From: Fidelibacterota bacterium
GTDB lineage: Bacteria > Fidelibacterota > JAANXI01
DNA length: 64,000 nt
Direction: 5' to 3'
Assembly (NCBI GenBank): GCA_021734025.1
Contig: JAIPJS010000007.1
Location: forward strand, 28,441-92,440
Shown here in pieces: positions 15,321 to 63,391 of the stretch. The notes beneath the pieces are model-generated. The model did not search any database. It had not been told where the DNA came from and saw only the letters and a list, made by a program, of their open reading frames with translations. A program made the position numbers and the translations under genes. Numbering within the stretch: position 1 is the stretch's first letter; each line of letters opens with the position of its first letter.

Positions 15321-15529
15321 CTTCAGTGCTAGAGTGTTCAAGTGTTTTGGTGTTCGAGTTATTTCTTGATCTTACCCGTAATTTTAACTCTGTGGTCATC
15401 CGTTGTTTCTGCGTTCACCGACTTGTCGGGGACTGCGTGCTATTTTGCCGTTTTCACCTTGCCATTTTCCCGGATTTTCCCTATTTCTGTTTCCTGAATT
15501 TTCCACGCATTTAACAACTGAGAGAGACT
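15321..15529. repeat. Intergenic word-repeat spacer: GTGCTAGA-GTGTTCAA-GTGTTTTG-GTGTTCGA array, conserved motif CTGCGTTCA...TGTCGGGGACTGCGTGCTATTTT, and ATTTTCC word array
   Basis: Shares the GTGTTNAA octamer family with 37633-37769. The 23-nt motif recurs at 25174-25196. Confidence 0.4.
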
Positions 15530-18127
15530 ATGGCCTGCAATTATTCCAAGTACGATCAGCACCTAGAGCAAATGCTGTCGGAGATGCTAAATGACCAAAA
15601 TAGCTCCGGGCGGCAGCCCTTCGAACTGCCCGGGACACCAAGGCAGTATGCGCCGGACCGGGAGGTGGATGTTACCCACATTAAACTCACTCTGTCCTTT
15701 GAAATCAACAACCAAATCATGTTCGGCGAATGCGAAACACAATTTACCGCCATCCGGGACGATTTGTCGCGGTTAACGCTCGACGCGGCGGAAATGGAAA
15801 TCCGGTCGGTCCGCGATTCCGCCGGAACATCTCTGGAATTTGAGCACACCGGATCCAAACTTATTATTAATCTGCCAGAGAAGTTAGAGGCCGGAGGCGA
15901 GTCCACAGTTCTCGTCGAATACAAAGTGGTTGAACCCCGGCTGGGACTCTATTTCGTCCTCCCGGATGATGATTATCCGGACAAGCCGGTGCAGGTCTGG
16001 ACCCAGGGTCAGGATGAAGACTCCAAGTACTGGTTCCCGTGCTTCGATTATCCCAATGAAAAGGCCTCCAGCGAAATCATTGTCACCGTGGACGAAAAAT
16101 ATTTCGCGCTCTCCAACGGAAAACTCCTGGAGACGACTCATAATAAGGAATCCGGCGAGAAAACCTATCACTGGAAGCAGGAAATTCCTCACGTGTCATA
16201 CCTCATCAGTCTGGTGGTGGGCGAGTACGTGGAACACACCGATTATTACGAGGATATTCCTGTTTCTTATTATGTGGCACCCGGCATGGAAGAAGAGGGT
16301 GCACGCTCGTTCGGGAAGACGCCGGATATGGTCAAATTTTTCTCGGAGAAGCTGAATTTTAAATATCCGTACGAAAAATATGCCCAGATCGCTGTGGAAG
16401 ACTTTGTTTTCGGCGGGATGGAAAACACCACGGCGACCACCCAGACCGCGCTGACGCTCCATGACGAGCGGGCACACCTGGATTTTGAGAGTGAGCCGCT
16501 TGTAGCGCACGAACTGGCGCATCAGTGGTTCGGCGACCTGCTCACCTGTAAAGAATGGAACCATGCCTGGCTAAATGAGGGTTTTGCTACCTATTTCGAG
16601 GCGCTCTATCGAGAGCACGATAAGGGCGATGATGAGTTTCGGTACGCCCTGCATGAGAACGCCACCCGGTATTTTGGTGAGGATTCCAAAAAATATCGCC
16701 GGCCAATTGTGGTTGATAAATACCGGGAACCCATCGATGTGTTTGATCGGCATCTCTATGAAAAAGGTTCGCTGGTGCTTCACATGCTTCGATGCGAACT
16801 GGGTGACGAGACCTTTTGGGATGTAATGCACCATTACGTTACAAAGCACCAACAGCAGAATGTGGAGACCATTGATCTCATCCGGGCGATTGAGGATGTA
16901 ACCGGCCGTAATATGAAGAAATTTTTCGACCAGTGGGTATTCGGCGCCGGCTATCCTGAGCTGGAGGTGAATTACACCTGGAATCCGGATGAAAATGGCG
17001 ATTCGGGGACGGCAAAGGTCATTGTGAAACAGACACATGAAATCGAGGATGACACCCCGCTATTCGACTTTCCGGTGGAGATACGGTTTGTGCTGCCAAA
17101 GGATGAAGTCTCCGAGTCTCTCAGGATCAATGAAAAAGAACAGGTTTTCTATTTTAATCTTGAGCAGAAGCCGGAGCAGTTTCTGTTCGATCCGGAGTAC
17201 TGGATACTTAAGCAGACAAAACTCCAGGTGCCGCAGGAACTGCTGCTTTCCCAGTTGATGAACGCCACCGATGTAATGGCCCGGATAGATGCAGCGCAGG
17301 CGTTGAAAAAGGATCCGTCGGCAAAGGTCGTGGATGCGTTGGGGAAGGCATTGCAGGAGGAAGAATTTTGGGGGGTGCAGGCGGAAATCGCCAAGGTTCT
17401 GGGAGGAGTAAAAACGACCAGAGCACGAGACCATCTCATCTCCGCCTTAGATCTCGAGCACCCTAAGACCCGTCGGGCGGTAGTTCAGGCGCTGGGGAAT
17501 TACCATGATGCAGAGACGGCAGAGGCCTTGAGTCCGCTGGCGAAATCCGATCCCAGTTATTTCGTCGAATCGTCGGCCAATACATCACTGGGAAAAACCA
17601 GAGCGGATGGCGTGTATGAAATACTGAAGTCATCCCTTGGAAAAGAATCTTTTAATGAAGTTATTCGCTCCGGCGTCTTCAATGGGTTCGCCGAACTCAA
17701 AAATGATGAGGCGATCGGCGAATTAGTATCCTTCACTCAGCGAGGTAAATCTCCACTCGCCCGCGCAGCCGCTGCAGTTACTCTGGGAAAAATGGGCGAG
17801 GACGACGACACGGCAAAGCGGCGCCTGTTGGACCTGTTGACACCCGAAGAGCACTTCAGGGTGAAAATGAGTGTCCTGGCTGGATTACAGCATTTAAGTG
17901 ATCTTGGAACCGTAACCAAACTGAAGGATTACGCCGAACAGGAGGGTAACGGGATGCTGAAGCGGACGGCATTGTTAGCCGCCCGGACCATTCAAAAGGG
18001 CCAACAACAGAGCAAAGCCGTTAAGGAGCTTCAGGATGAGGTGGAGAAATTGCGGACGGAACGGATGTCACTGGTTGATCGGCTGGAAAAAATTGAATCA
18101 CAATTAAACAATGAAAAGGAGAAATAG
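15530..18127 (+). CDS. pepN: M1-family aminopeptidase N with C-terminal HEAT-repeat region and coiled coil
   Basis: GGMEN (FGGMENTTATT). HELAHQWFGD zinc motif with a downstream E (NEGFATY). The C-terminus has repeated ...ALG...A..AL.. HEAT-like units. Confidence 0.85.
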   Translation: MACNYSKYDQHLEQMLSEMLNDQNSSGRQPFELPGTPRQYAPDREVDVTHIKLTLSFEINNQIMFGECETQFTAIRDDLSRLTLDAAEMEIRSVRDSAGTSLEFEHTGSKLIINLPEKLEAGGESTVLVEYKVVEPRLGLYFVLPDDDYPDKPVQVWTQGQDEDSKYWFPCFDYPNEKASSEIIVTVDEKYFALSNGKLLETTHNKESGEKTYHWKQEIPHVSYLISLVVGEYVEHTDYYEDIPVSYYVAPGMEEEGARSFGKTPDMVKFFSEKLNFKYPYEKYAQIAVEDFVFGGMENTTATTQTALTLHDERAHLDFESEPLVAHELAHQWFGDLLTCKEWNHAWLNEGFATYFEALYREHDKGDDEFRYALHENATRYFGEDSKKYRRPIVVDKYREPIDVFDRHLYEKGSLVLHMLRCELGDETFWDVMHHYVTKHQQQNVETIDLIRAIEDVTGRNMKKFFDQWVFGAGYPELEVNYTWNPDENGDSGTAKVIVKQTHEIEDDTPLFDFPVEIRFVLPKDEVSESLRINEKEQVFYFNLEQKPEQFLFDPEYWILKQTKLQVPQELLLSQLMNATDVMARIDAAQALKKDPSAKVVDALGKALQEEEFWGVQAEIAKVLGGVKTTRARDHLISALDLEHPKTRRAVVQALGNYHDAETAEALSPLAKSDPSYFVESSANTSLGKTRADGVYEILKSSLGKESFNEVIRSGVFNGFAELKNDEAIGELVSFTQRGKSPLARAAAAVTLGKMGEDDDTAKRRLLDLLTPEEHFRVKMSVLAGLQHLSDLGTVTKLKDYAEQEGNGMLKRTALLAARTIQKGQQQSKAVKELQDEVEKLRTERMSLVDRLEKIESQLNNEKEK

Positions 18128-18130
18128 TTT

Positions 18131-18364
18131 ATGCGCATCAGCATCGAATATTGTAACGAGTGAAACTATCTCCCAAAAGCCGCCGGTCTGGCGGAAAACA
18201 TATTACAAACCTTCGGCACCCGGATTCAGGAACTGACCTTGCTGCCTTCCGGGGGAGGCGTCTTCGAAATCGAATTGAACGGAAGCCTGGAATATTCCAA
18301 GAAACAGACCGGATCGTTCCCAGGAGAAGATGCAATCATTGATATGATCCGCCAGCGGTTGTAA
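18131..18364 (+). CDS. selW: SelW/Rdx-family selenoprotein. The in-frame TGA at 18161-18163 is read as Sec (CxxU motif CNEU). Missed by the ORF track.
   Basis: Read-through translation gives MRISIEYCNEUNYLPKAAGLAENILQTFG...GGGVFEIELNGSLEYSKKQTGSFPGEDAIIDMIRQRL. bSECIS-like hairpin ccgcc-GGUCU-ggcgg at 18180-18194. Starts 3 nt after the pepN stop. Confidence 0.75.
18164..18200 (+). promoter_or_regulatory. Bacterial SECIS element (stem ccgcc/ggcgg, loop GGUCU) directing Sec insertion at UGA 18161
   Basis: The loop is identical to the apical loop of the E. coli fdhF SECIS (GGUCU, with the conserved G and U). The hairpin begins 17 nt after the UGA. Confidence 0.6.
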
Positions 18365-18702
18365 CTGATCGGAATCCGAAAAAAGTGAGTATACAATGCA
18401 TGGTACAGAGAGATAAAGGGTATGGGTATAGTCTTCCGCTTAAAGGCCGCGAAGCGGGTTTAAGCGGAAGATTATCGAAGATTCACCGGAGTAATCCGGT
18501 TCAAGATGGAACTCATAATTCCTGTTGAACCCGCTGTTCAGGGGGGATAGCACTCTATATTATTTTGTCCCGAATAATTCATCGCAATAAAAACCTGTTT
18601 CCTCCCCAGGCAGAAAAAAGCTGTTCACTCCAACCTCACGACGCATTATATTCTGGAGCCGAGGGGACACTTTTCTAAATTCTTACCGATCAATACTATT
18701 TC

Positions 18703-23170: not shown

Positions 23171-23550
23171 TGAAACCGGTAACGGGGTATAAGGTATAGG
23201 GGTATAAGGGTATAGAGAGTAGGGTTTTTCTTAATCTTCCCATAGGGATCCCTTTGGGATAATCATAATCTTACTCTTACTCGATTCTACCTTGAAAAGC
23301 TGAATGGAAATGGGAGAAAGGTGCAGGGAGAAGGGAGAACGGAACAGATTGAATATCCAATTTTCTAGTTCACAACACAATAGGAGAAAGTTGTTGGTAG
23401 TAACCGCTTCAGCGGTTTTTCGTTTTGAATGAAGAGCATAGAATGAAAACAACGAACAAAAGCGCGGCTAAACCAGTCGTGAGCTTGGTCGAACGAGCCG
23501 CGACTACCAACGATAATACCATAACTTAAACTCTATAACACCGGAGTAAC
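23171..23550. repeat. Mosaic intergenic repeat element, copy B (complete): GGTATAAGG array, TTAATCTT, palindrome cccataGGGATCCCtttggg, TACTCTTACTCGATTCTACCTTGAAAAGC, GGAGAAGGG words, hairpin aaccgcTTCAgcggtt, hairpin cgcggct...agccgcg + GACTACCAAC, TAACAC words
   Basis: Approximately 85% identical over about 150 nt to 1-150. Shares modules with 13046-13357. Confidence 0.6.
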
Positions 23551-24807: not shown

Positions 24808-25203
24808 AAGAATAGCACGCAGATACACGCTGAAAAAACGGATTATCACAGATAAAACTAAGTTTTCTGATAAGAATAAACCTGAACAGATGAAGTTGGT
24901 TTTGGCATTATTCTTTTTACTTGCAAATTCCCGGGGCGAGCGCCTGGAATTCCGGCAATCTCTATAGCGGGTTTGTGACAAAAAAAGTATGTACAACAGG
25001 ATATCCACCTGCAACAGCATATCCTGAACAGTCTGGTGTCAATAAATATGAGTAGCCCCGCCATTCATGGCGGGGAATGGAATGCCGTTTCTATTTGGGG
25101 GCTTCAGCCCCCAATGTTGCTTAGTGATCGCAGAATCACTCTGCGTTCATCCGTTTTTTCGCGAACTCCGGCCTGTCGGGGGCTGCGTGCTATTCTTTAG
25201 AGG

Positions 25204-54470: not shown

Positions 54471-54908
54471 ATGAGCCAGGATTTCAAGCGTCGGACTATA
54501 GTAAACTGGTTGCTCGGAGGGGGAGTAATTGCGTGGCTGAGCGCAATATTTTTCCCGGTATTAAAATACCTCCAACCGCCGAGTATTCCGGAAGCGGTGG
54601 TTTCTTCGGTCAAGGCTGCAACTGTTAATGAACTAGCAAATAACTCCAGTAAAATATTCAAATTCGGAAATAAACCGGGCCTCTTGATCAAGACGCCTGC
54701 AGGAGAGTGGCGTGCTTTTACGGCCATCTGTACCCATTTGGATTGCATTGTCCAATATCGGGACGACCTGGAGCATATCTGGTGTGCCTGTCATAACGGC
54801 CATTACGATCTGCAGGGGCGTAATATCTCCGGACCGCCACCCAGACCGCTGGAAGAATACGACGTTAATATTCAGGGAAAAGACGTCTACGTATCGAAAA
54901 GGACGTAA
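54471..54908 (+). CDS. Rieske [2Fe-2S] protein of a bc/b6f-type complex
   Basis: CTHLDC and CACHNGHY boxes. N-terminal TM helix. Confidence 0.85.
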
Positions 54909-54916
54909 ATATATTA

Positions 54917-55980
54917 TGAAAGAGTCAATTCTAAGTTGGTTAAAAAACAGATATCCCGTTGATTCCGTCACGGAATTTGCCCAAAAGAAAAAGGTGCCTC
55001 TGTTTCAGGGGACTATCTGGTATTACTTCGGCGGAATCACCCTCTTTTTGTTCCTGATTCAGGTTGCGACCGGCATTTTACTCCTGTTTTACTACCGGAC
55101 CGGTGCCGACCAGGCGTATGAGAGTGTGAAGTTTTTAATGACAAAAGTCCATTTCGGCTGGTTGATCCGCTCTATTCACAGCTGGGCGGCGAATTTGATG
55201 GTGCTCTCTGCCTTTATCCATATGTTCAGCGTCTTTTTTACGCGGGCGTATCGTAAACCACGGGAACTGACCTGGATAACGGGGATGGTGTTATTCCTGC
55301 TGGCTATGGCATTTGGATTTAGTGGCTACCTGCTCCCATGGAATGAGTTAGCTTTTTTCGCGACTAAAGTCGGGACCGATATCGTCGGCGCTGTGCCGTT
55401 CGTAGGAGATTTTCTGCTCACCCTGTTACGCGGCGGGAGCGACGTGACCGGGGCTACGCTTTCACGCTTTTTCGGATTTCATGTAGCGCTGTTTCCGGGA
55501 ATTTTTACTCTCTTCCTAGTTATACATCTTGCGTTTGTCCAGGTCCAGGGTATGAGTAAGCCCATCGGTGCCAAAGAGGAAGAGCTGAAAACGATGCCGT
55601 TTTTTCCGAATTTTGTTTTGCGGGATCTTCTTATCTGGCTCATCGTGCTCAACGTACTGGCCATCCTGGCCGTCTTCTTTCCCTGGGAGCTCGGAGCAAA
55701 GGCTGATCCCTTCGTTCCAGCGCCAGCGGGCATCCGCCCGGAATGGTATTTTATGTTTATGTTCCAAACGCTCAAGATGTTGCCCGCACACATCGCTGGG
55801 CTCGAAGGAGAAACCGTTGGCGTCATGGCGTTTGCTATCGCAGGTATTTTTTGGATTTTGATTCCGTTTTTCGATCGCTCCTCCCAGCGGGGACATAAAT
55901 CGAAACTGTTAACGTACATAGGAATAATTGTCGTCATCTTCATTCTCGTCATGACAATTTTAGGATATACGCTCTCATGA
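54917..55980 (+). CDS. Cytochrome b (fused b6 / subunit IV type)
   Basis: Haem-ligand His pairs in polytopic helices. PEWY-like region [11 protein letters not shown]. Confidence 0.8.
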
Positions 55981-57233
55981 AACGAATACTCATTGTCACT
56001 GTATTGAGCCTGTTATTTGTATCAATCGCTTCCGGTCAACAGGAGGAAGAAATAAATACCTGCGCTGACTGTCATGAGATGATGGGGGCGCCCTACGATA
56101 GTATCGTCCATGCGCAATCCCAGGATATCCATGCCCAGAAGGATGTGACCTGTGCCGATTGTCATGGCGGGGATCCGACTACGATGGATTTTGAGGCAGC
56201 GAAGGCGCCGGAAACAAGATTTCGCGGGAAACCCGATCCCGCGGAAATTCCGGATCTTTGTGGATCGTGTCATGCTGATCCGGAATATATGCGCCAGTTT
56301 GATCCGGGATTGGCGGTCGACCAGCTCGCGAAATACTGGACGAGTCGTCACGGAGAGAAACTCCGGGAGGGGGATGCGAAAGTTGCTGAGTGCGCGAGCT
56401 GTCACGGTGCCCATGGTGTGCTGCCGGTAGACGATCCCCGCTCGCCGGTATATCCAACACGGGTCCCGGAAACATGCAACACCTGCCACGGCAATTCACA
56501 GTACATGGCTGAATACAATATTCCAACGGACCAGTACGAAGAATTCGCCGGGAGTGTGCACGGGCAAGCACTTCTCGAGAACAAGGATATCGGTGCGCCG
56601 GCATGTAATGACTGTCACGGAAATCACGGCGCTACTCCTCCGGGGATAGTTTCCATATCCCGGGTGTGCGGAACATGCCATATCAATAATATGGATCTGT
56701 TTCAGGAAAGTAAGCATGAGCCGATCTTCGACATGATGGATCTGCCTGAGTGCGAAACGTGCCATGGAAATCACGGGGTCCAACATCCCACCGATGCGAT
56801 GATTGGCACCGGGGAGGAATCTGTCTGCCTGAATTGTCACGGCGAAGGAGACAGCGGCTATAAAATGGCGGCAGCCATGTCTGAGTCTATCGACTCCCTG
56901 AAAATGGTCTACGATTCGGCTGAAGTCATGATTCAGCGAGCTGAAGAGAAAGATATGGGGGTCAGCGATCTGGAGTATTCCCTGCGGGAAGTTCGCCAGT
57001 CATTGATTCAAACCCGTACAATGATCCACAGTTTTGACGTATCCAGGGTTGAGGAGATAGAAAATGAAGGGCTGTCCGTGGGACAAGAAATTATCCGTTC
57101 AGCCAGGGAGCTTATTGATGAATTTTACTACCGACGAAAAGGGTTGGGGATTTTTACTCTGGTCATCACACTCGTTGTGATTGCACTTTATCTGAAGATA
57201 CGACATATGGAACAGCAAAAACCTTCCGATTAA
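55977..57233 (+). CDS. Multihaem c-type cytochrome (9 CxxCH) with C-terminal TM anchor
   Basis: Nine CxxCH motifs were counted. Signal peptide. C-terminal hydrophobic helix. Stop/start overlap with cytochrome b. Confidence 0.8.
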
Positions 57234-57326
57234 TTTTAAATAGACCCGGGATTCCGGGACTCGCATTGTTCTGCATTTCTAAAATGCCGGCTCAAGAGCC
57301 GAACCGGCAATAACAATGAAGGAAAC

Positions 57327-58976
57327 ATGGGCGACGACGCACCGGATTATCAGGATCTGGCTCGTGAACTCTCCACCCTCCGTACGATGGTGGAAAAGGT
57401 GCATGAGCGCGTCCGCCGGCTTGAACGAGCCGCAGGATTCAGGCCAGGGCAGATAACAACTCCTGAACAACCGAGATCAACGGAAGCGGAGGCTTTGGCC
57501 GGGACGCCTTCCGCCCCTAAAATTAGTCTTGAACAGCGTATCGGAGAATATTGGTTTGCCCAGGCCGGGATCGTAATCTTCATATTAGGACTTATTTTTC
57601 TGATCAGCTATACGTTTACCGAGTTCCGTCCATTTTGGCAAGCAGTCACAGGTTACGGGATCACGTTTTTGATCTTTGGCCTTTCCCGGCTGATGCAAAA
57701 GCGGTTCACCTTTTTGTCGGAGATCCTTTTTCCGGGCAGTTTGCTCTTATTGTACTATGTGACCCTGCGACTCCATTTTTTCCATGCGGAGCCAATTATA
57801 TCGAATAAGGCGATCGCCCTTACGCTCTTGTTAATCATTCTTGGCATCCAGCTCCGGATTACCTGGCAAAAGGATTCACAGTTATTAGCGTTTATGCCGG
57901 TACTTCTTGGCTTCTTAACGGCATTGTTGAGTGATACTCATCATTTTGCACTTATCCTGATTGTGGCAACAGCTGTTGTGGCAGCACTACTCTTTTCGAT
58001 CAAACATTGGCAGATATTTGGAATTGCTAGCATAGGTTTTACCTATGTATCATTCTTGATATATCTCTTAAATAACCCCATTCTCGGAAAAGAGATTCAA
58101 TTACTCCCCCGGCATGACTGGATGCTAGTGTACCTCGTGGCTACACTGATTGTTTTCACCTTGGTCAGTTTCCGTCCCCGGGTCAATGAGTATCTAACCC
58201 GTGTAACCCGGATTGCCCTTACTACCGTAAATTCCAGTGGATTTTATCTCGTGGCGCTGCTAGTGACCTTTCACTTTTTTCATCAGAATTTAGCGTTCTG
58301 GAATTTTGTTTTTGCTGGAGTGCTGTTTGCTATCGCCACAGCTCACTGGACAATCCGACAGAGTAAGTATTCGACCTCTTTCTATGCGAGCTTTAGTTAC
58401 ATTGCGTTAACTATCGGTATACTATCCGCAGCCGAAGCTCCCGATATTTTCCTGTATTTAGTATGGCAAAGTGCGATTGTTATCGGGACAGCGATTTGGT
58501 TCAAATCCGGTATAATCATCTGGGCGAATATGGGAATTTATTTGATTGTTCTCCTTGCCTATCTGTTCGTACCGGCGGAATCAGGGATGGTGAATGTCCA
58601 TTTTGCCATTGTTGCATTTTTCAGCGAACGCTTGCTGACTGTAGGAACGGTGCGGATTAAAAAGACCCCGGTTTTCTTCCATTACATATACGTGTTTACG
58701 GGATATGCTATGCTTGTTTACGGTTTAGCCCTCCTTTTACCGCCAGGTTACGTGAGTATGTTTTGGTTTATTGTGTCCGCCGGTATCATGGCCGTGGGAT
58801 ATGTATTGGATCTGCGATATTATAAGTGGATTGGTTTCAGCAGCATCGTTGCACCTGTATTCCGGATCTTTATTATTGATTTGGCCGCACTTGAGCCGAT
58901 TTATCGGGTTTTCTCCTTTGTGGCCATCGGAGCCGGCCTGATGGCTATCGCGATATTTTATACGCGAAAAGGGTGA
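57327..58976 (+). CDS. Polytopic integral membrane protein (DUF2339-like) with N-terminal cytoplasmic coiled coil
   Basis: About 14 hydrophobic helices following a charged N-terminus. No catalytic motif recognised. Confidence 0.45.
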   Translation: MGDDAPDYQDLARELSTLRTMVEKVHERVRRLERAAGFRPGQITTPEQPRSTEAEALAGTPSAPKISLEQRIGEYWFAQAGIVIFILGLIFLISYTFTEFRPFWQAVTGYGITFLIFGLSRLMQKRFTFLSEILFPGSLLLLYYVTLRLHFFHAEPIISNKAIALTLLLIILGIQLRITWQKDSQLLAFMPVLLGFLTALLSDTHHFALILIVATAVVAALLFSIKHWQIFGIASIGFTYVSFLIYLLNNPILGKEIQLLPRHDWMLVYLVATLIVFTLVSFRPRVNEYLTRVTRIALTTVNSSGFYLVALLVTFHFFHQNLAFWNFVFAGVLFAIATAHWTIRQSKYSTSFYASFSYIALTIGILSAAEAPDIFLYLVWQSAIVIGTAIWFKSGIIIWANMGIYLIVLLAYLFVPAESGMVNVHFAIVAFFSERLLTVGTVRIKKTPVFFHYIYVFTGYAMLVYGLALLLPPGYVSMFWFIVSAGIMAVGYVLDLRYYKWIGFSSIVAPVFRIFIIDLAALEPIYRVFSFVAIGAGLMAIAIFYTRKG

Positions 58977-59391
58977 CTTTCCCGGAAATGAGCATCAATC
59001 GGATTTCGTTGAAAAAATTTACTTTCCCTGTTGTGATGTCACGGATTTTCGTTGAATTAGTCAACGTAGGGGAAAGAAGTCCAATTATTGAGAAAAGTTT
59101 GAAACCGATTTCCTATTTGTAAAAAATAGTGTTGATATTTTCAACAATTCTGCCTAAAAAGATAAGAACCCACAGGGGTTCTGCGAATTCTGCCCTTGGC
59201 ACATTATTTGAAACATTATATTGCGTAATGAGAAGACAACAGTACAGTCAAATATTGGATTGTTGGCGGCAGACTTGCTGTTGCTCTCGAAGAATGCAAC
59301 CAATTTTTGCCGGAGATCGGTTCTGACCATTGATGTTTGGAATCCGATTTCTGGCAATTTTGTATCTTTTCAATTTGAAGGGGGATTTTTA

Positions 59392-61149
59392 ATGAAAAGG
59401 TTGCCTCTAATTTTAATTCTCGCACTCGGTTTTGTGGTTGCAGGTCTGGTCAGCTGTGAAAAAGAGAAGATCGTTGAAGCTGAACCGGCCATCAAAGTCA
59501 CCGAAGTTGTTGCGTCTGATACCATGGTTACCCAGGGTAAGACGGTAACGCTGACAGCAACACTCGAAACCGATGAAGAAGTCGACGCGGCATCCATTGA
59601 ACTGAAATGGTTTGCGGCGAACGGCGAATTCGTAGGACACGTCAGTGAAGGTGATACCGTGACCTGGAAAGCGCCGGCGGAAGATGGCGTTTATCGGGTG
59701 ACTGTCCACGCCACCGACGGAGAAAATATCGCCATCGGTATGCGGGATCTGGGTGTAAACGAATATGCACCTTCCGCAGATGTCTACTATGTCGGCGATG
59801 AAGCTTGTGGCCAGTGTCATGGCGATACGCACACGGATTGGGCTGAAACGGGCCATGCCGATGCGTGGGCCAGCCTGCAGAGCAGTGGGCATCCCGCACC
59901 GTATTGCGAACCGTGCCATACAGTTAATCAGGTGGATACCGACGGCAATTCCGGCTACGATGAAGTACCGACAGCGAAGTTCGTTGATGTGCAGTGTGAA
60001 AGCTGTCACGGACCCGGTAGTGACCACATTAGCGGTCCATCCGCTGATAACATCACAAGCCAGGAAGCAATTTTAGCTGAAGAAACCTGTGCGGTCTGTC
60101 ATGAAGGCGGGCACCATCCGTATCATGAACAGTGGACAGAATCGGCTCACAACTTTGATCCGGCTACCGCTGCTCATGGAGCTGGTGCACGTTCGTACTG
60201 CCAGCCGTGCCATAGCGGAACCGGTTTTGTCGAAGCGTTTGACGATGAATACACCGATCTGTATGCAAACGCCGAAAACAAGATGGGCATCACGTGTGGT
60301 GTTTGCCATGATTCACACAATAGCGACAATGTCGGACAGTTGAGAACGGTTGCGTCGTACGAATTCCTCGGCGGTGAAGTTGCCGATGAAGGCGGCGCAG
60401 GTCAGCTCTGTGTTCAGTGTCACCATGCACGTCATGATGGCGAAGAACAGATTCCGGCAGGCGACGAACACTTTGGGCCGCACGGTTCGACCCAGGGTGA
60501 TGTTGTTTACGGAACCACTGGTTATGAAGAAGTTGCACCTGATTTTCAGTTCGCCAGCACCGGTCACGGTCTGGTGGAAGACGCTTGTGCAGCATGTCAC
60601 GTCTACATGACCGAATATGATGAGACGACGGACTTCGCCAATGTGGGACATACATTTGAACCGCGTGTCGAATCCTGTAGCCAGTGTCACGGATCGGATA
60701 TCACCGATTCCTTCAGAGATATTCAGGCCAAGAACGATTTCGATAACGACAATTCCATCGAACCCGTTCAGGATGAAGTGGAAGGTCTGATCCATCTGCT
60801 GGCCGTCAAACTGGTGGAATATGACAACGCGAATAACGGCGGGAAATATCTTGACAATCCTGACCCGAACGCTGACGGTTTCCTGACCACGGTTATGGAT
60901 TCCATTAACAATACCTACACAGACAGTACCGAGTCTGGTGCCGTTGAACTTCGTAAAGGGGGTTTCAACCTCTTCTATGCGTATGACGACGGAAGCACGG
61001 GTATCCATAATCCGGCGTATGTCATTCAGTTGCTGCAGCAGAGTGTGCTGTATTACGATCCAAACGCATTTGATGATGGCGGATTGCTGGTTGGAGGAAA
61101 AGCCACCACTCTTGGTGCAGCCGACCGGATTACCACAGCGATGCAATAG
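59392..61149 (+). CDS. Multihaem c-type cytochrome lipoprotein (9 CxxCH)
   Basis: Lipoprotein signal ...GLVSC. Nine CxxCH motifs. Ribosome-binding site GAAGGGGGA. Confidence 0.8.
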   Translation: MKRLPLILILALGFVVAGLVSCEKEKIVEAEPAIKVTEVVASDTMVTQGKTVTLTATLETDEEVDAASIELKWFAANGEFVGHVSEGDTVTWKAPAEDGVYRVTVHATDGENIAIGMRDLGVNEYAPSADVYYVGDEACGQCHGDTHTDWAETGHADAWASLQSSGHPAPYCEPCHTVNQVDTDGNSGYDEVPTAKFVDVQCESCHGPGSDHISGPSADNITSQEAILAEETCAVCHEGGHHPYHEQWTESAHNFDPATAAHGAGARSYCQPCHSGTGFVEAFDDEYTDLYANAENKMGITCGVCHDSHNSDNVGQLRTVASYEFLGGEVADEGGAGQLCVQCHHARHDGEEQIPAGDEHFGPHGSTQGDVVYGTTGYEEVAPDFQFASTGHGLVEDACAACHVYMTEYDETTDFANVGHTFEPRVESCSQCHGSDITDSFRDIQAKNDFDNDNSIEPVQDEVEGLIHLLAVKLVEYDNANNGGKYLDNPDPNADGFLTTVMDSINNTYTDSTESGAVELRKGGFNLFYAYDDGSTGIHNPAYVIQLLQQSVLYYDPNAFDDGGLLVGGKATTLGAADRITTAMQ

Positions 61150-61290
61150 CGGCATACTGTAGTTTCTGAGTGAACGAGAAATAAGAATTTTAGGGGGGCA
61201 GCACTTTTAAGAGCCCCCCTAAAATTTAATTTGGATGACGAATAACAAATTCCATGGCAGGATAAGTAAACAGGAATCCGGGACTACGAT

Positions 61291-62499
61291 TTGAGGACAA
61301 TTATGAGAAAGAACGGACTTGTATTCGTGTTGGCGCTGCTGGTGTTGCTGCCTATAATCGGGCAGGCCCAATCCGGGTTTTCCGGTGCGTATATCGGAAA
61401 GTTTACAACCCAGGAACGGGGGGCCGATGACGGGGCAACAGAACAGCAAATGCGTCTGTATAATCGTATCCTGTTACAGTATGAACCATCAGAAAATTTT
61501 GCATTAAAAACAGCACTGAGACGCGCAGACTATTTTCAGGAAAGTATCGGGAATACGCATCTGTACTATGCGTATGCCGACTGGGCTGTCACCCAAAATA
61601 TTGGAGTGATGGTTGGCCGGCAATATCCCTATAACAAGATGATCCGGCGGGCAATTGATGGACTCAGCCTGGATTGGCAGGTGATGCCGCACTGGTCGAT
61701 TGAAGGCATTTGGGGACTGTACACTCCGTACGATCGGGCCGGTTTAATCGAGAACCCGGAAGATGAGCACGGATATTACATGGGACTACGGTACACCGGG
61801 AATGAGAACTCCACGCTTCGGGCGTCCGGATATCAGCAGGTGAGCCAGGGACGGATTTTAAATTTCGCTGGAATGGACGGACGCTATGCCGATCTCTGGG
61901 GAATAAATTTGTACGGATTTTTTAAATATAATATCACACAAAATTTTGTACAGGAGGCAGAGGGACAGCTCCGGCGTCAGTTCGGTGAAAATTTCTCGGT
62001 TTCCGCCGCATATAAATACCGGGATCCGAATTTCGACCTGCCGGAATGGTACTGGCAGTTTGCCGTCGAGCCTTATACGAATGTCAGGGCGGGATTTGAT
62101 TGGTTTCTGACTCGTACCGGAAGTCTTTCTCTGGAATATTTTACCCGGATGATGACGGATGAAACCATCCGGCGATACAAATTGGGATGGGTTGCCTCCG
62201 ACTGGACAGCCGGAGTAGTCTATGCGGCCAACGAGGATGGCACATCAGAAGAATGGAACGCTTACGGCAGCATCCAGCATCGCTTCGGAAAAAGTCTGTT
62301 AGTGGGCGCTGGCGTTGATTACTTTGATTATGTCTTTAACGAAACGTATGAAGAACCGCTCAATGCGTTCGGTTCCAATGTTTTTGCACGGTATCGGTTT
62401 GGGAATGCCTTAACAACGGGCCTGCGGCTGTATTATTTAACCAATCCGCAATATTCCAATGACGTCCGGCTGTTGGGTGAACTCAGTTACCAGTTCTAG
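61291..62499 (+). CDS. Outer-membrane beta-barrel protein (porin-like, terminal F) embedded in the cytochrome cluster
   Basis: Signal peptide. Aromatic-rich alternating strands. C-terminal ...LSYQF. Confidence 0.55.
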   Translation: MRTIMRKNGLVFVLALLVLLPIIGQAQSGFSGAYIGKFTTQERGADDGATEQQMRLYNRILLQYEPSENFALKTALRRADYFQESIGNTHLYYAYADWAVTQNIGVMVGRQYPYNKMIRRAIDGLSLDWQVMPHWSIEGIWGLYTPYDRAGLIENPEDEHGYYMGLRYTGNENSTLRASGYQQVSQGRILNFAGMDGRYADLWGINLYGFFKYNITQNFVQEAEGQLRRQFGENFSVSAAYKYRDPNFDLPEWYWQFAVEPYTNVRAGFDWFLTRTGSLSLEYFTRMMTDETIRRYKLGWVASDWTAGVVYAANEDGTSEEWNAYGSIQHRFGKSLLVGAGVDYFDYVFNETYEEPLNAFGSNVFARYRFGNALTTGLRLYYLTNPQYSNDVRLLGELSYQF

Positions 62500-62515
62500 G
62501 AAGGTGAAAGCGCAT

Positions 62516-63391
62516 ATGAAAATTCTTGTACAGGTTTGCTTGCTGGTACTTTTCCCGTTGACGCTTGTCTTCGGCGCCTCCGATGGCGATACAACGAATT
62601 TTGAATTTTCGCATAAGTACCATAACGAAATGGGACTCGGCGACTGCTCTACATGTCATATGAGTGCCACCGAAAGCACCACCGGCACTGATGATTTACT
62701 CCCCAACGCAGAAACCTGCACCATGTGCCATGGCGATGCGGTGACTCCACCGACAAATCTCAAGCGTATCACAGATTATCAGACAATTTTTTCGCACAAG
62801 CGCCACGCGGTAGATGAGGAAATTGAGTGCAGTTCATGCCATGAAGGTATTCTCGAGGATGAGGCAATTACAGCTGATCATCTGCCAACGATGAACGACT
62901 GCTATTCCTGCCATATGGAGGATGTGAAGCAGGTGCCGGAAGATTGTGGAATGTGCCACGGTCCGGAAGAGCGGTTAACGCCGAAAACCCATACCGCGAC
63001 CTGGGAAAATTATCACGGTATGAAGGTGAGCAGTACCGGAAACCGGGGAGAGTGCGCTACCTGTCACGTAGAGGAATCGTTCTGCCAGGATTGCCATTTT
63101 GGCGATAATGTGGTGCAGCAGACCCATCCCACGAACTGGGAGTATACGCACGGGATTGAAGCACGCCGGCAATCCACGGATTGTAGCACATGCCACGAGA
63201 GCAAACAATTTTGTGCGGATTGCCATCAGGCCAATCTGGTGATGCCGATTACACACTCGGTACCGAGTTGGGCAACGAAAGCAGGCGGAGGCCGTCACGC
63301 GGAGGAAGCCACCATGGATATAGATAATTGCGCATCATGCCACACGAATCCGGCAGACGATCCTACCTGCCTGGAATGCCATAGTAATTAG
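62516..63391 (+). CDS. Multihaem c-type cytochrome (11 CxxCH)
   Basis: Signal peptide. Eleven CxxCH motifs. Confidence 0.8.
   Translation: MKILVQVCLLVLFPLTLVFGASDGDTTNFEFSHKYHNEMGLGDCSTCHMSATESTTGTDDLLPNAETCTMCHGDAVTPPTNLKRITDYQTIFSHKRHAVDEEIECSSCHEGILEDEAITADHLPTMNDCYSCHMEDVKQVPEDCGMCHGPEERLTPKTHTATWENYHGMKVSSTGNRGECATCHVEESFCQDCHFGDNVVQQTHPTNWEYTHGIEARRQSTDCSTCHESKQFCADCHQANLVMPITHSVPSWATKAGGGRHAEEATMDIDNCASCHTNPADDPTCLECHSN

Follow-up and report, generated by a model that had tools for sequence, protein, structure and literature searches.

SelW-like proteins with a CxxU motif are the most abundant selenoprotein family of marine prokaryotes (PMC1088965, PMC2398784), and in the Global Ocean Sampling (GOS) data 427 Sec forms of SelW-like proteins were counted versus 56 Cys forms (PMC2398784). 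The bacterial members known from the Sargasso Sea and GOS (Pfam PF10262, formerly PF05169) are ca. 75-80 amino acids long, carry the CxxU motif at the N terminus, and contain a G-rich loop and FE[IV], SKK, and FP blocks; in their genes, an in-frame UGA is followed by a hairpin within the coding sequence, with a G in the small apical loop. The locus studied here, positions 18131-18364 of a 64-kb stretch of DNA that was analysed as a whole (hereafter, the window), resembles them in each of these respects, marine origin included. The G-rich loop, FE(I/V), SK block, and FP, which an earlier note on this DNA had put forward as a SelW pattern, are the same blocks.

The same domain, covering residues 2-76 of the window protein, is found in bacterial Cys-form Rdx proteins of solved structure (2fa8, 3dex, 2ojl, 2p0g, 2oka, and 2obk; E-values from 1e-17 to 5e-10), but these proteins have CTQC instead of a Sec-containing motif and are ca. 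25 residues longer. Mammalian SelW (2npb) and MIEN1 (2ljk) belong to the same Rdx superfamily and have CxxU or CxxC at the same position, but their sequence match is distant. Eukaryotic SelW depends on a SECIS in the 3'-UTR and on SBP2/eEFSec, while the bacterial type uses a hairpin in the coding sequence and SelB.

In Escherichia coli fdhF, a 17-nt upper stem-loop begins 11 nt past the UGA and contains a bulged U17 and essential G23/U24 (PMC8659212). A more general bSECIS model, given in a 2026 review, specifies a loop of 3-9 nt with a G in its first two positions (N1-G-[G|U]-N-N2), an upper stem of 4-16 bp, a UGA-to-loop distance of 16-37 nt, and an MFE of -7.5 kcal/mol or lower (PMC13188914).

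We conclude that the locus very probably encodes a SelW-like Rdx oxidoreductase with a CxxU selenocysteine, specified by a UGA codon and a SECIS inside the coding sequence. The novelty of such a gene is low, since the SelW-like family has been catalogued as the most abundant marine one since 2005-2008 and curated HMMs exist for it; only the Neomarinimicrobiota lineage and the adjacency to an M1/HEAT peptidase gene are mildly new. For Sec-aware annotation, the locus makes a clean positive control.

Reading frame and protein family

Direct reading of the sequence revealed a start codon, ATG, at 18131-18133, an in-frame TGA as codon 11, and a stop codon, TAA, at 18362-18364 (Table 1). The read-through product is MRISIEYCNE-U-NYLPKAAGLAENILQTFGTRIQELTLLPSGGGVFEIELNGSLEYSKKQTGSFPGEDAIIDMIRQRL, and both the coordinates and the 77-residue translation given in the earlier note are exactly reproduced. 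A standard ORF listing of this interval yielded short fragments only, in line with the junk ORFs that had been noticed in a six-frame track. The expectation that gene callers would miss the gene was borne out: in the Logan gene calls for the identical contig, the interval between both flanking genes is left empty, and public versions of relatives are cut short or misread.

Table 1. Features of the SelW-like locus, with positions in the window
Feature	Position	Strand	Basis
Upstream M1-family metallopeptidase with C-terminal HEAT repeats, 865 aa	15530..18127	+	Pfam Peptidase_M1_N, Peptidase_M1, HEAT_2
Shine-Dalgarno-like AGGAG, 9 nt 5' of the ATG, within the 3' end of the upstream gene	18117..18121	+	Read directly; function presumed
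Predicted SelW-like/Rdx selenoprotein CDS, 77 aa (MRISIEYCNE-U-NYLPKAAG...RQRL)	18131..18364	+	Translation, PF10262, TIGR02174, homology to 2fa8
Putative CxxU redox motif: Cys8 (TGT, 18152-18154), Asn, Glu, Sec11 (TGA, 18161-18163)	18152..18163	+	Aligns with CTQC of Atu0228 and SAV_2001
Probable Sec-encoding UGA codon	18161..18163	+	TGA at the homologous codon in 84/84 relatives
Candidate bacterial SECIS hairpin inside the CDS	18180..18194	+	Stem 18180-18184/18190-18194, loop GGUCU 18185-18189

At NCBI, the situation appears to be different. In three assemblies, the flanking proteins have accession numbers exactly two apart (MCF7804398/…400, MCF7828513/…511, and MCF7882064/…066). Since this leaves one accession number between the flanking proteins, PGAP, which has NCBIfam selenoprotein models, probably annotated one CDS there. 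The description of the gene as unannotated thus holds for the Logan calls, but the accession numbering suggests that the SelW-like gene is probably already annotated at NCBI.

When Cys was substituted at position 11, the 77-residue product matched the Pfam Rdx profile PF10262 over its whole length (profile positions 1-74 of 74, E=1.5e-22, 80 bits versus a cutoff of 22.6). A search with this profile had been proposed as the check on the SelW/Rdx-like assignment, and its outcome agrees with that assignment. The product also scored 62.2 bits with the NCBIfam model TIGR02174 (CXXU_selWTH; cutoff 34.2). With the equivalog model NF041051 (SelTWH_Campy), it scored 87.3 bits, 0.7 bit short of the cutoff of 88, and by its sequence the predicted protein is classed in the broader Rdx subfamily, outside this equivalog.

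The best matches among solved structures were bacterial Cys-form Rdx proteins, namely Atu0228 (2fa8, E=1e-17), 3dex, 2ojl, 2p0g ('Selenoprotein W-related'), and 2obk. A thioredoxin-like fold of the 77-residue product is suggested by the E=1e-17 homology to solved Rdx structures, which extends over residues 2-74. In the alignments with 2fa8 and 3dex (SAV_2001), the Sec codon is aligned with the second Cys of CTQC, which places CxxU at the SelW/Rdx redox centre, as the earlier note had it. The first residue of the motif, C8, is invariant in a 16-sequence alignment (A1), and an N-terminal M[KRN][IL][ST]IEYC is common to 84 relatives of the protein. The match to MIEN1/C17orf37 (2ljk) had an E-value of 8e-9, while mouse SelW (2npb) was matched only marginally (E=0.17). 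We therefore consider the label 'SelW-like' right and the label 'SelW orthologue' wrong.

A hairpin downstream of the UGA codon

The hairpin ccgcc-GGUCU-ggcgg begins at the 17th nucleotide past the UGA and has a calculated dG of -8.2 kcal/mol; a possible G.U closing pair between 18185 and 18189 would leave a GUC triloop. With a 5-nt loop that starts 21 nt after the UGA, a 5-bp stem, and this energy, the hairpin agrees with the bSECIS model (PMC13188914) in every parameter. Taken alone, it is weak evidence, since bSECIS-like hairpins follow 84 of the 2105 TGA triplets in the window (ca. 4%) and the fold of the single 61-nt sequence is not significantly stable (z=-0.74). No Rfam family matched the hairpin (at gathering thresholds, nothing in the window was matched), and a relaxed search of it returned only noise, with RAGATH-25 at 16.7 bits versus a threshold of 49.

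A different picture emerges from comparison of relatives. A gapless alignment of 62 distinct 48-nt segments, all starting from the TGA (A3), was used for this purpose. The helix formed by columns 21-25 and 29-33 is paired in 94.8% of alignment cells, versus 19-38% with the 3' arm shifted by 1-3 columns. Double-sided changes were found in 44 cells, versus 14.5+-2.8 in shuffled alignments, none of 500 of which reached 44, and are seen in three of the five helix pairs. The pair 21-33, formed by the wobble bases of two Ala codons, is C-G in 18 segments, A-U in 14, U-A in 10, G-C in 8, and G.U in 6. Because the hairpin lies within conserved codons (A-A-[S/G]-L-A), its conservation is partly protein-driven and only the covariation at wobble positions is independent; the changes in pair 21-33 are compensatory and occur at synonymous sites, which is beyond explanation by selection on the protein. 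De novo folding of the alignment with RNAalifold recovered three inner pairs only, with a consensus energy of about zero. We conclude that the earlier claim of a SECIS hairpin after the UGA agrees both with the bSECIS model and with a helix that covaries in 62 sequences. The locus provides a tidy example of how compensatory synonymous changes preserve an RNA signal within a coding sequence.

All segments of A3 have a G at +26 in the loop, and the next base is mostly U, in some segments G. The loops are AGUUU (19 segments), AGUAU (15), GGUCU (13), AGGAU (8), AGUCU (3), GGCCU (2), and two singletons, a set that corresponds to the loop consensus of the bSECIS model. The hairpin had been described as fdhF-type. 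Like the E. coli fdhF SECIS, it lies in the coding sequence just past the UGA and has the essential loop G-U, even the literal string GGUCU. Unlike the fdhF element, it has a perfect 5-bp stem without the bulged U, starts 16 nt past the UGA rather than at the 11-nt offset, and has its G-U at +26/+27; the GGUCU string, moreover, is not conserved in relatives, which have AGUUU, AGUAU, or AGGAU. While the loop part of the description stands, the predicted element is a generic bacterial SECIS rather than one specifically of the fdhF type.

We propose the following scheme. The SelW-like gene would most likely share a transcript with the M1 metallopeptidase gene upstream of it, and translation would start at ATG 18131, with the AGGAG at 18117-18121 as the ribosome-binding site. 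At the UGA (18161-18163), the hairpin at 18180-18194, with its loop G-U at +26/+27, would recruit SelB.GTP.Sec-tRNA(Sec), Sec would be inserted in place of termination, and translation would proceed to the TAA at 18362. In the resulting protein, Cys8-x-x-Sec11 would cycle between a selenenylsulfide and a reduced form, reducing a substrate. Both the SelB-dependent decoding and the redox role are presumed here.

Conservation of the TGA codon and other readings of it

The nearest genome in a species-level collection (L006) is a Candidatus Neomarinimicrobiota MAG, whose peptidase is 74% identical to that encoded upstream of the SelW-like gene. Downstream of this peptidase gene, an orthologue of the SelW-like gene was found (positions 2510-2743 of L006); its product shows 74% amino acid identity, and the corresponding codon is likewise TGA. 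The two genes differ at 74 nucleotides, 46 of them in third codon positions; 36 of the codon differences are synonymous and 19 non-synonymous. This pattern indicates purifying selection on the frame both before and after the TGA. An unconserved frame past the TGA had been named in the earlier note as evidence that would speak against its reading; conservation was found on both flanks.

Metagenomic relatives were collected by a scan with two peptide patterns that did not include the Sec codon, and the query used for confirmation carried Cys at that position. The scan was seeded from a 5-sequence alignment, the 16-sequence alignment A1 being too diverse as a seed. Whether relatives have TGA or TGC at the codon had been suggested as a check: TGA was present at the homologous codon in 84/84 relatives (the best 80 of at least 552 metagenomic relatives together with L001, L006, L020, and L021), and TGC or TGT in none. 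The protein match, the 84/84 TGA, and the covariation of the hairpin are far beyond chance.

An exhaustive HMMER search, in which the exact 66-residue segment following the TGA was the query, returned 275 representatives. True CxxC proteins, 39 in number, are the more distant homologues among them. Of 150 representatives, 60 are short fragments that begin just past the motif, as is typical of truncated gene calls, and 19 are full-length with Trp or Gly at the Sec position. For two relatives of the latter kind (L020 and L021), the contigs were inspected, and the residue was found to correspond to a TGA codon; the Trp arose because these contigs, 620 and 899 nt long, had been gene-called with code 4. 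The Trp or Gly thus results from the caller's choice of code, which is unconstrained on short contigs. Translation of the Sec codon as Trp or Gly (code 4 or 25) in public SelW-like genes is a systematic annotation artefact; systematic mis-annotation of selenoprotein genes is a recognised problem (PMC13326102).

Could the UGA be read through without Sec in an organism devoid of a Sec system, so that a near-cognate Trp or Cys is placed at position 11, or translation mostly yields a 10-residue peptide plus a little read-through product? Neither selA, selB, nor selD was found among the ca. 40 window ORFs scanned, tRNA genes of any kind are absent from the 64-kb window, no tRNA-Sec was detected in 56 related loci, and the conserved neighbourhoods of relatives contained no sel genes. 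Such a reading could also draw on SAR406 single-cell genomes with an 'orphan' SelD, in which SelA and SelB were not detected (PMC5029168), but these genomes are incomplete, which makes the orphan SelD weak evidence. A SelB-type hairpin that stands at a fixed distance from the UGA and is kept by compensatory synonymous changes is left unexplained if there is no SelB. The TGA, furthermore, has been kept in 84/84 relatives, though one base change to TGC or TGT would give the Cys form of the distant homologues. We therefore regard read-through without Sec as very unlikely. With Sec decoding as the preferred reading, selA, selB, selC, and selD would be expected in the genome on the evidence of the SelW-like gene itself, and the gene would point to UGA decoding as Sec in this Neomarinimicrobiota lineage. 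As the literature found on the phylum records only an 'orphan SelD' (PMC5029168), the gene would, if this is true, document the full Sec-decoding trait in Neomarinimicrobiota.

The fragments in the ORF listing and the empty Logan interval are also what one would see if a Cys-form Rdx gene had been hit by a nonsense mutation of TGC or TGT to TGA and become a pseudogene. This is highly improbable, given that the same TGA is present in the 74%-identical orthologue and in all 82 metagenomic relatives, that the third-position bias is seen on both sides of it, and that the start codon, Shine-Dalgarno sequence, and stop codon are intact. The relatives are not duplicates of one another: they comprise 62 distinct sequences, with amino acid identities of 45-64%.

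Of 34 long ORFs in the window, 13 terminate with TGA, among them a domain-complete citrate synthase gene that is followed by a strong hairpin. Since TGA is a regular stop for these ORFs, the recoding is site-specific. Two scans of the window for other TGA-interrupted genes, with and without a hairpin filter, revealed no credible selenoprotein. A genetic code that reads TGA as Trp (code 4) or Gly (code 25) would make recoding unnecessary, and public calls of relatives do show W or G at this residue. Such a code is practically excluded by the stop-codon usage, with 13 of 34 long ORFs ending in TGA; no other window gene needs read-through of it, and the calls with W or G were made on contigs of 620 and 899 nt, too short to constrain the caller's choice of code.

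The upstream gene and other features of the window

The upstream gene product is listed at NCBI as MCF7804398.1, 'M1 family metallopeptidase', from Candidatus Neomarinimicrobiota bacterium, and the other flanking protein as 'CPBP family intramembrane metalloprotease', from Candidatus Neomarinimicrobiota (Marinimicrobia) MAGs. The earlier note had called the upstream gene pepN. This name has to be given up, since the protein is an M1/HEAT metallopeptidase that scores far under the cutoffs of the PepN equivalogs TIGR02412 (190.3 versus 591.2 bits) and TIGR02414 (135.4 versus 718.2 bits). Outside Neomarinimicrobiota, the closest relatives of the M1/HEAT peptidase in the species-level genome collection (L002-L017) come mostly from archaeal MAGs (Aenigmatarchaeota, Nitrososphaerales, and Thermoplasmata) and from Planctomycetota, with 39-46% identity, a patchy distribution that suggests lateral transfer.

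The peptidase stop codon, TAG 18125-18127, is separated from the ATG of the SelW-like gene by 3 nt (ttt). Together with the AGGAG inside the 3' end of the peptidase gene, this junction fits the earlier claim of translational coupling in its geometry only; the arrangement, however, is not conserved in relatives. In L006, the SelW-like gene lies 135 nt past the peptidase stop, and in the other 80 relatives a different gene is located upstream, at a median distance of 145 nt. Tight coupling is thus peculiar to this locus and gives no grounds for claiming a functional link. No terminator was found in a scan of the 135-nt spacer of L006. In the window, the SelW-like gene is probably co-transcribed with the M1 peptidase gene.

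Adjacency of the two genes is seen in the window and in L006. One may speculate that, in this Neomarinimicrobiota lineage, the SelW-like gene was captured into an operon with the M1/HEAT peptidase gene and that both proteins cooperate; we consider this unlikely. If true, it could mean, for example, redox control of the peptidase or its substrates, and would provide the first functional handle on bacterial SelW-like proteins.

Unlike the window copy, which directly follows the M1/HEAT metallopeptidase gene of a Neomarinimicrobiota genome, most relatives stand behind a gene for a FecR-domain protein. In the metagenomic loci L022-L101 (e.g., L051:454-4003), this upstream protein, of ca. 796 residues, is present in 56 loci. 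Immediately downstream, these loci encode uncharacterised proteins of ca. 293 (51 loci) and ca. 258 residues (42 loci) without a Pfam match, and in several of them a tRNA-Ala(CGC) gene is located ca. 1.5 kb downstream. The conserved surroundings of the relatives also include genes for DNA polymerase III gamma/tau and an FAD-linked oxidase.

Several other features of the window were observed. A very stable long hairpin at 18428-18475 (within 18362-18560), ca. 65 nt past the stop codon of the SelW-like gene, consists of a 17-bp stem and an inner 4-bp stem. Its region has an MFE of -64 kcal/mol (z=-3.48; none of 200 shuffles was as stable), there is no U-tract, and Rfam returned only sub-threshold noise. 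Possible identities of this hairpin are an FCB-type factor-independent terminator and a repeat-like element.

The 54712-63391 segment encodes a cytochrome b and several multihaem c-type cytochromes, including a lipoprotein (59221-61149). The models closest to the cytochrome b, both below cutoff, were cytochrome b6 and the ExtP b-type cytochrome of a selenite/tellurite-reduction operon. The haem domain of the 59221-61149 product partially matched a 'UshA-like (seleno)protein' model; this ORF was rejected as a selenoprotein candidate, since it lacks a Sec codon and encodes a multihaem cytochrome lipoprotein with CxxCH motifs. The segment as a whole looks like an extracellular or periplasmic electron-transfer module.

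Two direct repeats were also found. A 65-nt intergenic element is repeated with 92% identity within 57-138 and 23265-23360; its copies sit upstream of + strand genes that start at 415 and 23551 and are followed by purine-rich GGGAGAAAGG tracts. A 39-nt repeat, 79% identical, occupies two other intergenic gaps, at 15406-15444 and 25156-25194. These intergenic repeats may represent 5' leader or promoter sequences that several genes have in common; alternatively, they may be mobile repeats of small size.
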